From Candidatus Spongiisociaceae bacterium (lineage in GTDB: Bacteria; Actinomycetota; Acidimicrobiia; Spongiisociales; Spongiisociaceae): DNA of 64,000 nucleotides. Positions within the stretch are counted from its first letter, which is position 1, and every line of letters starts with the position of its first letter. The stretch is from positions 192,001 through 256,000 of the forward strand of contig CBDCOH010000002.1 of assembly GCA_965219685.1 (NCBI GenBank). Direction: 5' to 3'. Shown piece after piece: positions 43,501 through 49,500 of the stretch. The position numbers are program-made.

Positions 43501-46500
43501 CGCCTGCGGGGACGTATCCGGCCGGGGGCCAGGCGACGAAGCCGCGTTCTTCCCGGACGGAGGGGTCGCGTTCCCAGTCGTATCGGAGGTGCATCGCGTT
43601 CGCTAGTTGGTGGCTGCCGGCGCCCCGGACGTTGCCGGTTCCGATCTGGGTGGCGAACGGGGACAGGATTTGGGTACGGTGCCCCACGGCGAGGTTGTGG
43701 TCTCCGGTGTCGCGGATGTATTCGTCGACGCCGGAGATTCCGGCTACTCGGAGTCCGATGTTCTCTCCCCCTGGTTGATCGATATCGCGGTAGCAGGCCC
43801 AGTCGGGGCCGGGGGAGTGGGAGAGCCGTCCTTCGGCGAGGATTATGAGGGCTTTGTTCTGTGCGGTGGCGGACAGGGCGGGGTTCTCGGTGATGGCGTG
43901 GAGGCCGGCCATGGTCCTGAACCAGTTGACCCGCTGCGCGATGCTGTCCCGGAAGACTTGGCTGGTAGTTCCCGCTGCGCATTCGTTCAGGTTCCCGGTG
44001 TAGCCCCATTCGGGTTCGGCCCTAGCGAACTCTTGGTTGTAGGCGGCGACAACCTCCTCCCGGTTCCACACGTCAAGTCCTGGACGGTCCCGCCGTGTGT
44101 CGGCCGCGAAGGTTCGCACCAGCCGCGGCGATGGCCGGTTCGGGTTTCCGGCACGGTCATGGGCAACCCCTTCCGGCAGCCGTACCACGACGGATCCCTC
44201 AGCAGCCGGTGCCACGGTTAGCTCGTATCCGGTACCGGAACCCGTCAGTGTGGTGGCTCGACCGTTGACCACCTCCACGTCTTCGATGCCCAGACCGGTC
44301 ACCGGCTTGGCGAAGGTGATCACTACTTGGAATGATCCGGACACGGTGCGCGACGTCTGGGAGTGGAGTTCGACCGTCACCGCGGCCCCGGCGATCGCGC
44401 GGGTGAGGAACGTTGCCATCTGAGCGCGGGTGACCGATGCGTTGGGACAGTACCGGAGCGGGCCGGTGGCACAGCCCACTGTGATCCCCGCCGCGGCCAG
44501 AGCATCGATGCTGGCGATGTGGTAATCGCCCTCGGTATCTGCGAACCCGAACGGTGGGGCAGGTTCGAGGCCGAACGCGCGGGTGAGGAAGGTTGCCATC
44601 TGTGACCGGGTCACGGACTCGGTCGGGCAGTACCGTAGGGGGCTGGTGTCACAACCCGCCGTGACTCCCAGCACCGCGAGGCGTTCCACGTAAGGCGGCC
44701 ACCACTCGTCGCTGTCCACGTCGGTGAAACGGTTAGCGAACGGATCGGGGTTCGCCCTGTCGAGGACCCGCACCAGCCACACCGCCATCACCCAACGTTC
44801 GAGCGGAGCGCTGGGGCAGAACTCCCCGGGGGCGCAGTCGGTGCCCTCCAAGACCCCAAGCTCTGCCAGTTCCTCGATCCCGGCCCGATGCGGACCCGCC
44901 CCATCAAGATCCGAATACCCGGCATCGGCCGCGACGGACCCAGCCGAAACGACCACCGATACCGTCACTGCCAGCGCGAACACGACACGCCCCCACCGAC
45001 CCGGACCCGCGATCCTCACAAGCAGCGCCAGGATGGCCCCGAGGCTGCTCCGCGACTGTCACACCATGCCGGCAGGTAGCCACCGCGGCGACCTCCGGCT
45101 CCACCGCGAGACCCGTTAGCCGCTGCAGGGGATACCCAGGCAAAGCCCGTCACCGGGAACGCGTCGGTCACTCCAGGTCGTCCAGTAGTTTCTCGACCCG
45201 GTTGGGTTCGTTGAGTCGTTCTCGTCCACCAAGGGAGAGGCTGCTGAAACTCGATGCACGGTCTTGGGCCCGGTCGCCATGCCTGTCGAGCAGCCAGAAC
45301 CAGGATGTGCCCGGCATTCCATAGTGCTTGTGGACCGCGTTGGAACCGTCCCAGAGATTCGTGTACCCCAGGTTGCGTTCGGTCGCGAACCTCTTACCAC
45401 GGTCGAAGGACTCCCACTCTGCGGGGTTGATCCCGATGACGGTGACTCTGTGAGCGTTATCTCGAGCGAACTGCTCGACAATCGGGACATGCGCCCGGCA
45501 GAGCGGTCACCAACTCGCCCAGAACCAGAACAGAAGCGCTTTGTCTCCGCGCACCACCGAACGCAGGTTCACGGTCTTGCCGGTGGAAAGGTCGGTCAGG
45601 TCGACATCGGGAACGTCGTCGCTGATCTCGACCGCTTCGGCCTCGGTGGACTGTTCCTGCTGTCTGAGTAGGGCCCGGTACAGGAAGGTGGCCATCTCAG
45701 CACGGGTCACGGGTTTGGAAGGGCAGTAGCGCAGCGGGCTGGTCCCGCATCCCGTGGTGATCCCGACCGCGGCCAGCGCGTCGATGCTGGCTGCGTGGGT
45801 ATCACCCGCGGTATCGGCAAAACCGGCCGGGGAAGCCTCGGCGAGGCCGAAAGCGCGTACCAGGAACGCGGCCATCTGCCCACGGGTAACGGCCTCGTCA
45901 GGGCAGAACCGCAACGGTCCGGTGGCACAACCGTTGGTCACCCCAAGCTCCGCCAGACGGTCCGTGTAAGGAGCCCACCACACACCTGCGTCGACGTCGT
46001 CGAACCGTGTGGCCGCCTGCCGGGCCGGGTTGGTCCCGTCCAGGACCCGCACCAGCCACACCGCCATCTCCCAGCGGCGGAGCTGCCCGCCGGGACACAG
46101 ACCCTGCTTGCAGCCGGTCCCCTCGAAGATCCCCGAAACGTCACGGCTCAGAGACTCCACCGCGGGCTGGTGAATCCCGGCATCGTCAGCGGCTGTCAAC
46201 TCCCCTGAACCGGACGGGTCGGCCGATCTGAACTTCCGGTCACCCCAGCACAGGATCGAACCGTCGGGCCGCAACCCACACACGTCGTACGAACCTACGG
46301 AAATACCGGTGAACGTCCCATCCGGCGCCGGTTCCCGCCAGTAGGACTTGGTGCGCCAACAGGTCACCGAACCATCGGTTCGTAGCCCGCAGGAGAGGCC
46401 AGTGTTCGTGGAAACGGCGCTGAAGTTCCCCGAAGGCGCCTCCGGAAGCGTGCCGGACCAGGCTCGGGCACCCCAACACACGATCGAACCGTCGGGCCGC

Positions 46501-49500
46501 AACCCGCAATAGTGCTCGTTCCCCTGAGCCGCCACGCTAGTGAAGGATCCCGAAGGCACGTCCAACCTTCCGCCACCGTCGTGTCCCCAGCAGACGATCG
46601 ACTGGTCAGTTCGCAGCCCGCACGAATTGACGGAACCCGCCGAGACCGCGGTGAACGTTCCCGATGGGGCATCCGTCTGCCCGAACTGGCTGTTACCCCA
46701 GCACGTGACCGCCCCATCGGTTCGGGCCCCACAAGAGTGGGATCTGCCCGCGCTCACCTCAGCGAAGCTGCCCGACGGCGTATCCGTCTGCCCGTCACGA
46801 TTGTTGCCCCAGCATGTGACTGCCCCGTCGGTTCGGACCCCGCACGAATGAGCCCATCCGGCGCTCACAGCCGAAAAGACGCCAGATGGAGGATCAGTCG
46901 CACCGTGCTGCACCAAGTTGGTCCAGCTCTCACCCTCCTCATCCCGGCCCCAACACGCAACAGTCCCGTCGTCCCGCAGCCCACACGAGTGCAGACCACC
47001 CACAGACACCGCCTTAAACGTTCCCGGCCCGACCGTCTGCCCGTACTCGTTCCAACCCCAGCACACGACCGAACCACCGGACCGAACCCCACACGAGTGA
47101 TAGCGGCCACCGGAGATCGCAACGAACGACCCTCCGGGCGCATCCAACTGTCCATACCGGTCCCATCCCCAACACTCCACCGACCCGCCGGCACGCAACC
47201 CGCACGAATGCTCCCCACCGGCAACCACCTTTGTGAACGACCCGGAAGGCGCGTCCGTCTGTCCGTAGCGGTTGTCGCCCCAACACCTAACCGACCCGCC
47301 GGCGGTCAGCCCACACGAATGGAAACGGCCGGCAACCACAGCTGCGAACGTTCCGGAAGGCGTATTCGTCTGTCCGTAGCGGTTGTCGCCCCAGCACCTA
47401 ACCGTTCCGCCGGTCTTCAACCCGCACGAATGCAGATAGCCGGCCGCCACCCCGCCGAACGTTCCGGAAGGCGTATTCGTCTGTCCGTAGCGGTTGTCGC
47501 CCCAGCACGTGACCGATCCGCCCGTGTTCAACCCGCACGAATGCAGGTAGCCGGCGGTCACCGCAGCGAAAGCCCCCGAAGGCGCATAGGTCTGCCCGTA
47601 CCGGTTCCAACCCCAACATGCCACAGACCCATTCGTGCGAACCCCGCACGAATGCCGATGCCCACCGGCCGAAACCGCGACGAACGTTCCCGAAGGCGCC
47701 TCGACCTGCCCATACTCGTTGTCACCCCAACAGGTGATTGACCCATCGGCGCGCAACCCGCACGAATGGAAGCCCCCGGCCGCCACCCCGTCAAACCCAT
47801 GAGACACCGACACTCGCTGCCCCGTCACATCAGCAGCCACCTGGATAGGCGAGCCACCAACCCCCACCGTGTCCACCACACCGAAACCACCCAGCCCAGA
47901 CGCCCGATCCGGAACCACCACAGCCACCACCACCAACACCACGACAGCGACAATCACCCACGAAAAACGCCGCCACCAAGCCATCCGCCAGAAGCTAACA
48001 CCCCAAGAGTACCCACAACAATCCGTTCCCTGAGTTCGCAGCCAGCGGCGCATCACCTGAGTGTCCGAAAAAGCGGGGCAACTCCATGCCGCCCGTGCGG
48101 CCGGCCTCCGGCTTGCGCACCAAGTCGGGCTCGGCGGATGAACGGGCGGGCCATTGCCAGGAAGTCCGCATCGCCGCTGGCGAGGATATGGGTCATCGAC
48201 TCCGTGTGCGGACACCTCCCACCAGGATCACGGGCAGGCCCGTTGCCTGTTTCACCGCACAAGCGAAAGGCCGGTAAATAGGCCAACGCACCCGTGGGCT
48301 TCCAGGCCCGCCGAACCAGCAGGTGAAGAGCCGCATGCCGCAGAGAGACAAAGTCAGGACTAGACCGGCACACTCCCCGACGAGCGGCGAGTCAGCGCCG
48401 GCGTTGGAGCCGTGACCTCCACGGCGCTGTCGCAATGGCCGGTGGTTGCTGCCGCGGGACGGATTGACGCCTGCGGTGGCCTTGCCTGATGTGAAGGTCC
48501 AACGATTGCGGGCAGCCCCTCAAGTCGCCATCGAGAATGACGGGCGACCCCCTCCGTTCTGTGCGGAGAGGCGGTGAAGCCCACCACCATATGGACTTCA
48601 CCCTGACTCCCTGCGAGATGAGATATGGTGACGTGTCGCTCCGCCCTATGGTGATCGTGCCCGACGAACTCGTCGGACTATCTCGCCCCCGAGTGCGACA
48701 TCCTGGAATCCCAGCCCCGTCGACTTGAAGACCGTGATTTCCTCTGAGGTACGTCGGCCAACACGCCGTCCGGATAGCACATCCCCCAATTCTCCAGCGA
48801 CGTGAACCGCACCGGCATGACGGTCATTCTGAGCCGAGGCGAGATCTGGTGCCTCAGTCCAACACTTCTTGAGGGAATCGACGATAACGCGAGCACGAAC
48901 GAGCAAACGCAAACCAAGTTCGTTATCTCCTAGAGACGAGACGTGTGAACCAGGACGGATATGTTCGGCATCAATGAGGGTTGTAGTCGCCGACGTAGCT
49001 GTTACGACAGCTTCAGCGCCGCGAACCGCCTCGTCTATTGTCGAGACAGGCTCAATTCGTTGTTGCGTGATGACATGCGAGAGCTTGGCAGCCAGTTTCT
49101 CTGCGTTCGTGATGTCACGACTCCAGATGCGGATAGCCTCGATGGGCCTTACCCGGCACGTCGCTAACACAGCCCAATAGGCCACCGGACCACTCCCTAG
49201 CATTGCCAAAGAGCTTGTATCGGTTCGTGCTAGGGCGCTCACTCCGAGTGCAGCGGCAACACCTGTTCGCACTGCAGTGATCCACGTGCCATCGAGAACG
49301 GCTGCGGGTGCACCAGTCCTCTCATCGAATATCACCACGACAGCCTGGTTCGCCGGCCGATAACCCTTGGGGTTCTCGGGATAGGCCGTTAGAGCTTTGA
49401 GTCCCAGATCTCCAGTCCGATTTAGCCACGCCGGCATGATCACAGCTGTACCCTGTGGAACCGCAAAGACCGTATGAGCAGGGTTGCTGATGAGGCTGCG

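Follow-up and report, generated by a model that had tools for sequence, protein, structure and literature searches.

UxxC redoxin and TlpA-like selenoproteins, in which U is selenocysteine (Sec), are listed as predicted families in the available part of PMC13188914. Fusions of thioredoxin-fold selenoproteins have also been described, with none to an SLH or RCC1 domain seen in the available part of PMC2398784, and the Sec machinery has been reported in Actinomarina in a source whose available part does not mention thioredoxin or UxxC (bioRxiv 10.64898/2026.04.03.716425). Our literature search for an SLH- or RCC1-fused selenoprotein, which covered few subscription papers and no supplements, found nothing on point. 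Here we describe such a candidate in a 64,000-nucleotide (nt) stretch of DNA, called the window, from Candidatus Spongiisociaceae bacterium (Acidimicrobiia; assembly GCA_965219685.1, contig CBDCOH010000002.1, positions 192,001 to 256,000). It is a minus-strand gene whose apparent stop codon almost certainly encodes Sec.

The reading frame opens at an ATG at 47984 (minus strand), runs through 825 codons to a TGA at 45509-45507, and continues for 112 further codons to a final TGA at 45170-45168. An earlier sequence-only reading had claimed this open extension and a selenoprotein of ∼938 residues; the frame agrees on re-reading, and the Sec machinery and codon conservation described below support the claim. 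The gene and its parts are as follows.

45168..47984, minus strand: whole coding sequence, 938 residues with U826, comprising a signal, 14 RCC1/BLIP-II repeats, 3 SLH repeats, and a UxxC thioredoxin fold
45507..45509, minus strand: in-frame TGA, almost certainly Sec826, position one of UxxC in the motif W-U826-P-L-C829 (context FWFWASW-U-PLC)
45500-45498, minus strand: Cys829, the putative resolving residue of UxxC
45171..45626, minus strand: TlpA/DsbE-like thioredoxin-fold domain, residues 787-938
45666..46193, minus strand: three SLH repeats with a Cys pair in each (Pfam, structure model)
46230..47798, minus strand: 14 repeats of ∼37 residues with one C-x9-C pair apiece (script count and Pfam)
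47895..47984, minus strand: probable signal peptide or membrane anchor, residues 1-30 (by inspection)

Pfam models scored above their curated cut-offs along the whole chain: RCC1_2 (PF13540) at 350 bits, WD40_RLD at 165, SLH (PF00395) at 28, AhpC-TSA (PF00578) at 49.9 against a cut-off of 26 (residues 787-892), and Redoxin (PF08534) at 48.7 against 26.6 (residues 789-902). The last two matches span the UGA, and with both models above cut-off and UxxC at the active site, the domain belongs to the redoxin family. These models and the homolog alignment agree with the earlier proposal that the open reading frame (ORF) stops, after FWFWASW, exactly where the first Cys of a thioredoxin motif belongs. 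The proposed RCC1-type repeats and SLH domain also held, the latter through a fold match to solved SLH domains as well. Export is probable: the N terminus, as judged by hydropathy only, resembles a signal, with a basic start and hydrophobic residues at 7-25 (mean hydropathy 3.0), and the SLH domain and paired cysteines are consistent with an extracytoplasmic location. All 17 Cys pairs are complete in the window's copy. A contig from sequencing run X2 covers 44900-47374 with no differences to the window, which makes an assembly error less likely; run X2 may be the source sample and thus is not independent biology, and no single sequencing-run contig covers the whole gene. Marine, coral, and sponge metagenomes, one of each, contain pieces 97-100% identical. 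As to taxonomy, a ribosomal protein L3 relative with 80% identity is labeled Acidimicrobiia, the sole direct evidence of this kind; an EF-Tu search of the plasmid collection did not place the organism further. No RNA runs were among the sequencing runs listed for this sequence.

The genome encodes all of selA, selB, selC, and selD, the genes on which the sequence-only reading had made its case depend, above curated cut-offs. selA and selB are adjacent, the tRNA-Sec has the anticodon tca, and selD carries an in-frame TGA of its own. Across loci L021-L072, we aligned 58 distinct domains over the site, counting identical contexts once, and kept 48 at E<1e-14 (nine weaker rows and a Plantactinospora locus were left out). 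Among these close homologous domains, which as kin are not independent, 47 have TGA and one has TGC at the site; 96-113 open codons follow the TGA, and Cys829 is invariant in all 48. What we found is thus the reverse of a genome without Sec machinery whose homologs all read TGC or TGT, as a simple nonsense mutation or sequencing error would predict. The sole close Cys form nests inside a TGA clade (support 100/97) and, because of that position in the sequence tree, is derived. A selB match was found in 22 of the 23 genomes with TGA domains, an overlap that tells little since selB is present in 57 of the 61 genomes of that set.

A protein-only search of 251 genomes of the class returned 26 matches, 22 with one TGA and four without a stop. 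The four Cys forms sit in three genomes (G063, G222, and G155; 92-96% complete), a small control set; none of the three has a selB match, and selA was not matched in two of them, G222 having it. A related-locus search of named genomes gave two distant loci only. No NCBIfam selenoprotein model reached its cut-off (NF041054, 26.9 bits against 300; NF053656, 12.7 against 100). Cys-for-Sec replacements within the family were seen in L056 (G006:C1:1770664-1771617), P0003, and P0250-P0253. Among database gene calls, P0005, P0006, and P0126, which have repeats and SLH, stop at the very residue where the truncated call of this gene stops, and P0249, 86% identical, is a downstream half called as a separate ORF.

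Two hairpins lie downstream of the UGA.

45462..45478, minus strand: conserved candidate selenocysteine insertion sequence (SECIS), with a 6-bp stem, a 5-nt loop (45472-45468) with G second, and -8.0 kcal/mol
45483..45497, minus strand: proximal hairpin, the first after the UGA; weak, with low conservation

The sequence-only reading had assigned the SECIS to a hairpin directly after the UGA. That hairpin exists, but the likely SECIS is the distal one, 34 nt after the UGA (positions 32-48 from U). The distal hairpin has a z score of -2.87 against shuffled sequences and is 97.2% paired across homologs. The proximal hairpin (z -0.65, 69.5% paired) was rejected as a SECIS for its weak fold, low pairing across homologs, and absence from the consensus fold; it is probably not the SelB site. 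Taken as a whole, the 47-60 nt that directly follow the UGA show no more folding stability than shuffled sequences (z 0.11 and -0.11). In the available part of PMC13188914, the model of a bacterial SECIS (bSECIS) has a loop of 3-9 nt, a stem of 4-16 bp, a G in the first two loop places, a distance of 16-37 nt from the UGA, and an energy of at most -7.5 kcal/mol, and the distal hairpin lies within every one of these limits. An Rfam scan of 45100-45700 gave no match.

Codon choice and class-wide conservation point to the same element. The stem's Ala codon reads GCT in all 48 domains, although GCT makes up 9.5% of Ala codons genome-wide and 45 of the 402 at other sites of these domains; for Glu in the hairpin, all 48 use GAG, compared with 254 of 365 Glu codons at other sites. 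Of the 26 class-wide matches, we retrieved 20 and parsed 19, all but L214. The distal hairpin is retained with 5-6 of its 6 pairs in all 15 parsed TGA homologs, five of which show a compensatory CG to UA pair, and is lost in all four Cys homologs, where 1-3 of the 6 pairs are left. A metagenome scan with a pattern that demanded the hairpin and allowed any TGN at the site returned at least 110 distinct matches, all TGA among the matches listed.

DsbE proteins have oxidase activity, and the best sequence match of the thioredoxin domain among solved structures is DsbE/MPT53 (1LU4, E 7.5e-11). Its structure model has template-modeling (TM) scores of 0.75-0.84 to ResA, DsbE, and DsbF, and both the extra helix-strand insertion and UxxC are present. 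The cis-proline of canonical TlpA/ResA/DsbE oxidoreductases is replaced.

45303..45305, minus strand: Ser894 at the thioredoxin-fold cis-proline position, aligned to Pro of 1LU4

This position is Ser in 44 of 45 domains of family f1, the exception with Pro being the fusion at L055, whereas Pro is kept in 18 of 19 class-wide domains and in 57 of 69 metagenome domains (among the matches listed). In its action, the domain probably resembles a DsbE/TlpA oxidoreductase, but because Ser replaces the cis-proline, we do not file it as a canonical member. The genome has one CcdA and a DsbB that adjoins a Cys-type redoxin; VKOR was not found in 29 genomes, nor a DsbA-like PF13462 protein in the bacterium's own genome. 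The idea that the UxxC family is the organism's only disulfide-forming system was rejected, given DsbB and the neighboring Cys redoxin.

Four further thioredoxin-fold genes in this genome carry a TGA at this place in the motif: a tandem trio near C2:3585 kb and a distant gene at C2:638565. The trio (L021, G000 C2:3584589-3588200) comprises two SLH fusions and a lipoprotein whose linker is Thr-rich; downstream of it, near C2:3584200-3583650, lies an ORF of about eight near-identical, coiled-coil-like repeats of 21 residues. The gene at C2:638565 (L022 4119-4868) encodes a more distant lipoprotein UxxC redoxin that keeps the cis-proline, has a nearer hairpin (loop ∼20 nt from U), and lies tail to tail with cytochrome c maturation-like genes. 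A genome-wide codon-score scan of TGA codons, which recovered one of six known sites and is thus no census, gave two more likely Sec codons, each with a hairpin, at C2:437446 and C2:4055349; from their motifs, we take one context to be formate dehydrogenase-like and the other a CxxU in a CMD/AhpD-like protein. Elsewhere, P0323 (131 residues) starts within the second half of one UxxC domain and reaches as far as the motif of another, which suggests part of a tandem two-domain, possibly two-Sec, protein. At L060 (G002:C1:2313170-2313568), a TGA-type domain has its SLH part cut off upstream by unrelated sequence and is probably a remnant.

The repeats of the window protein match solved structures of BLIP-II (E 2e-35), plant ACR4 (1e-23), UVR8 (3e-13), and RCC2 (5e-4), and ACR4 and BLIP-II are also the top Foldseek matches of the repeat model. 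The sequence-only reading had called the propeller eukaryote-like, a description that these comparisons do not support: the nearest solved relative, BLIP-II, is bacterial, and SLH+RCC1 proteins form a large bacterial family, with 1113 database proteins matching the repeat-SLH region at E<=1e-20. BLIP-II has seven blades. The tandem repeats here come in a multiple of seven (14), and the count suggests that they probably form two seven-bladed BLIP-II-like propellers; the model of the region is all-beta (predicted local distance difference test, pLDDT, 73.5; predicted TM score 0.55), superposes poorly, and does not show closed rings. In the data of PMC9218822, as far as its available part goes, most of the RCC1/BLIP-II group is from bacteria. 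SLH+RCC1 scaffolds (P0007-P0125) bear varied payloads, among them an M6-like metalloprotease (the source's name), subtilase, PD40, and CAP; the Sec-thioredoxin is thus one payload among many.

The SLH-thioredoxin part was modeled at pLDDT 87, and its SLH domain has TM scores of 0.77-0.85 (by target) to solved SLH domains. Two PF04230 pyruvyl transferases are encoded in the genome, together with 38 SLH ORFs and 11 RCC1 ORFs, six having both; 101 C-x3-9-CP motifs occur in its 43 SLH/RCC1 ORFs.

Within the SLH repeats, the gene changes its closest relatives. Residues 601-690 share 63-71% identity with RCC1-SLH proteins whose chain stops after SLH and 38-50% with SLH-thioredoxin proteins, residues 691-775 are 65-71% identical to both classes, and residues 776-825 are 59-69% identical to SLH-thioredoxin and 1-4% to RCC1-SLH proteins (seven chosen rows per class). 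Since identity switches class along the chain, we place the crossover within the SLH repeats.

45660..45914, minus strand: inferred crossover zone, residues ∼691-775, where an RCC1-SLH parent would give way to an SLH-thioredoxin parent

The gene is very probably a chimera of an RCC1-SLH gene and an SLH-Sec-thioredoxin gene, with the junction inside the SLH repeats. Five of the six SLH+RCC1 ORFs in the genome put SLH first, and the repeats come first only in this gene. The class-wide form of the UxxC domain is short and mostly lipoprotein-like with a low-complexity linker; of 76 metagenome matches examined, one has SLH and none has RCC1 repeats among the matches listed, and SLH fusions of the domain also occur in genera g1 and g7. 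The same architecture of repeats plus SLH is seen in P0005, P0006, and P0126. Three other fusions of repeats to a Sec-type thioredoxin occur in the genus: L055 is frameshifted, L068 lies at a contig edge with no SLH between repeats and thioredoxin, and L069 has stops and SLH first. A single origin of the four fusions was rejected (approximately unbiased test, p-AU 5e-57; 34 of 48 rows, a quick tree, and a group named after the first tree), so on these sequences such fusions arose more than once; a clade of the window gene and L055 has support 18 and was neither shown nor rejected. No whole Cys-type repeat-thioredoxin fusion was found among the best 150 representatives or four longer matches, which is weak evidence.

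Taken together, these results suggest the following mechanism. SelB would bind the hairpin 34 nt downstream and bring Sec-tRNA to the UGA, as its conservation implies. The protein would be exported and anchored to the wall through its SLH domain, with a pyruvylated polymer as the probable ligand, and would display the UxxC thioredoxin domain beside a disulfide-rich repeat scaffold serving as a binding or spacer module. There, it may carry out thiol-disulfide exchange (repair or isomerization) on surface proteins rich in paired cysteines, with Sec826 as the nucleophile, Cys829 as the resolving residue, and re-reduction through a CcdA-type carrier, while DsbB and the Cys redoxin would do routine oxidation. 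The fusion itself would stem from recombination within the SLH repeats shared by two paralog classes. We lean toward a surface thiol-disulfide oxidoreductase as the function, and on balance, the best explanation of the locus as a whole appears to be an exported, wall-anchored chimeric Sec-thioredoxin of an Acidimicrobiia-like bacterium. A short isoform from termination at the UGA is plausible, since there are natural RCC1-SLH proteins whose chain ends directly after SLH. It is improbable, though conceivable, that read-through acts as a selenium-dependent switch on a wall-anchored protein in a host-associated bacterium, giving a propeller-SLH binder without selenium and, with selenium, the binder plus a Sec-Cys site free of cis-proline, the propellers aiming at host or microbial proteins or the site capturing metals, and the fusion having been selected several times independently.

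Several observations weigh against parts of this explanation. Four of the six stem pairs are invariant in alignment A1, which leaves covariation thin there; G026 (96% complete, 160 contigs) has a TGA homolog without a selB match; and L056, the close Cys paralog, retains the hairpin in a genome, G006, that has selB. For the fusion, no whole ortholog was found in 28 other family genomes, and two of the three other repeat-thioredoxin fusions are frameshifted or stop-broken as assembled. For the function, the cis-proline is described as more conserved than CxxC itself (PMC2757866, available part), and Ser stands in its place here; with DsbB and the Cys redoxin present, the window protein is not needed as main oxidase. 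Could the TGA simply be a true stop, by nonsense mutation or sequencing error, so that the product is an RCC1-SLH protein and the tail is dead? In the genome's long coding ORFs, TGA is the most frequent stop (1396 of 2275), RCC1-SLH proteins without thioredoxin exist, and gene callers end here (P0004). We nevertheless consider this very improbable given the same codon at the same motif position in nearly all relatives with conserved open frames beyond it, the hairpin tied to TGA, the Sec machinery, and the identical contig in run X2.

Granting Sec decoding, the fusion might still be a short-lived, near-neutral by-product of recombination among SLH paralogs, its ends functioning independently. 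The rejection of a single clade, the frameshifts of L055 and stops of L069, the missing ortholog, and the reverse order in most SLH+RCC1 ORFs of the genome all fit such a history; yet P0006 and P0126 (∼83% identical in the repeats) and P0005 keep their architecture, which has therefore survived considerable divergence, the gene in the window is unbroken and has every Cys pair, and repeated origin equally fits repeated selection, so that we regard the neutral history as unlikely. We give rather little credence, too, to a UxxC site without cis-proline that serves as a surface ligand for metals or metalloids or as a peroxide scavenger instead of a protein disulfide catalyst. Its appeal lies in the near-uniform Ser of family f1 against Pro elsewhere in the class and metagenomes, in the possibility, raised in the available part of PMC2757866, that the cis-proline both forms the substrate site and prevents metal binding to CxxC, and in DsbB and the Cys redoxin handling ordinary oxidation. 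Against this, Cys829 is invariant, the model retains a ResA/DsbE-like fold (TM 0.82 to 1lu4), no metal-handling gene was seen beside the locus, and the Cys-form relatives P0250-P0253 also have Ser, so the change is not tied to selenium.

The surroundings of the gene are rich in surface proteins. Five SLH genes (FN3, CAP, FN3, Ig+CAP, and the selenoprotein coding sequence) occupy 25404-47984 of the window and surround a block of lower GC (57-62%) with PP2C, TraG-like coupling protein, kinase-like, and PD40 repeat genes. Short upstream ORFs at 48053-48373 and 49608-49889 appear by eye to be remnants of a flavin oxidoreductase and an insertion-sequence integrase; neither has a Pfam match at E<=0.001. 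A promoter scan at the locus found none, and terminator-like sites were at chance level.

New here are the propeller fusion and its probable origin by recombination, a revised SECIS assignment backed by a natural control, and the absence of the cis-proline. Because gene callers cut or split at the UGA, a class-wide group of exported Acidimicrobiia selenoproteins is largely missing as whole proteins from databases. The family offers a natural test set for bacterial Sec decoding: its hairpin sits at a constant 34 nt, close to the upper limit of the accepted distances, and is retained where the codon is TGA but lost from the Cys forms of genomes without a selB match. The natural UxxC site without cis-proline is useful for probing the role of that residue, and the propeller fusion illustrates the shuffling of payloads by SLH cassettes on the cell surface. 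Known biology would be overturned only if the fusion or the read-through switch turned out to have a function.

Compared with known systems, the window protein shares with its SLH-thioredoxin and lipoprotein-thioredoxin paralogs the same domain (41-54% identity), the UGA position, and the hairpin; these paralogs have no propeller repeats and are single-payload proteins. NHLRC2 is reportedly a protein that combines a thioredoxin-like domain with a propeller. With the closest solved relatives of its repeats, BLIP-II and the ACR4 CRINKLY ectodomain, the likeness is confined to the repeat module: BLIP-II is a secreted bacterial beta-lactamase inhibitor, the 14 repeats are about twice its length, and the model superposes on it badly (TM 0.24 by target, root-mean-square deviation ∼17). 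The SLH domains of Sap and SpaA (PDB ID codes 6BT4 and 7SV3), which bind pyruvylated wall polymers, have the same fold (TM 0.81-0.85 by target) at 20-27% identity, and the window's SLH repeats differ in their Cys pairs and the putative selenium redox domain attached to them. The secreted actinobacterial DsbE/MPT53 (1LU4) and DsbF (3IOS) and the Bacillus ResA, all extracytoplasmic, include the best fold match of the thioredoxin domain (TM 0.82-0.84 by target) but have Cys and cis-proline and neither SLH nor repeats, where the window domain has a predicted Sec and Ser894; the function of DsbE and DsbF is given as unknown in the available part of PMC3792642. There are also the catalogued UxxC redoxin selenoproteins, with which the window protein shares UxxC in a TlpA-like fold, Redoxin and AhpC-TSA matches above cut-off, and a hairpin that fits the bSECIS model, and from which it differs by its fusion to SLH and 14 repeats and by the change of cis-proline to Ser.

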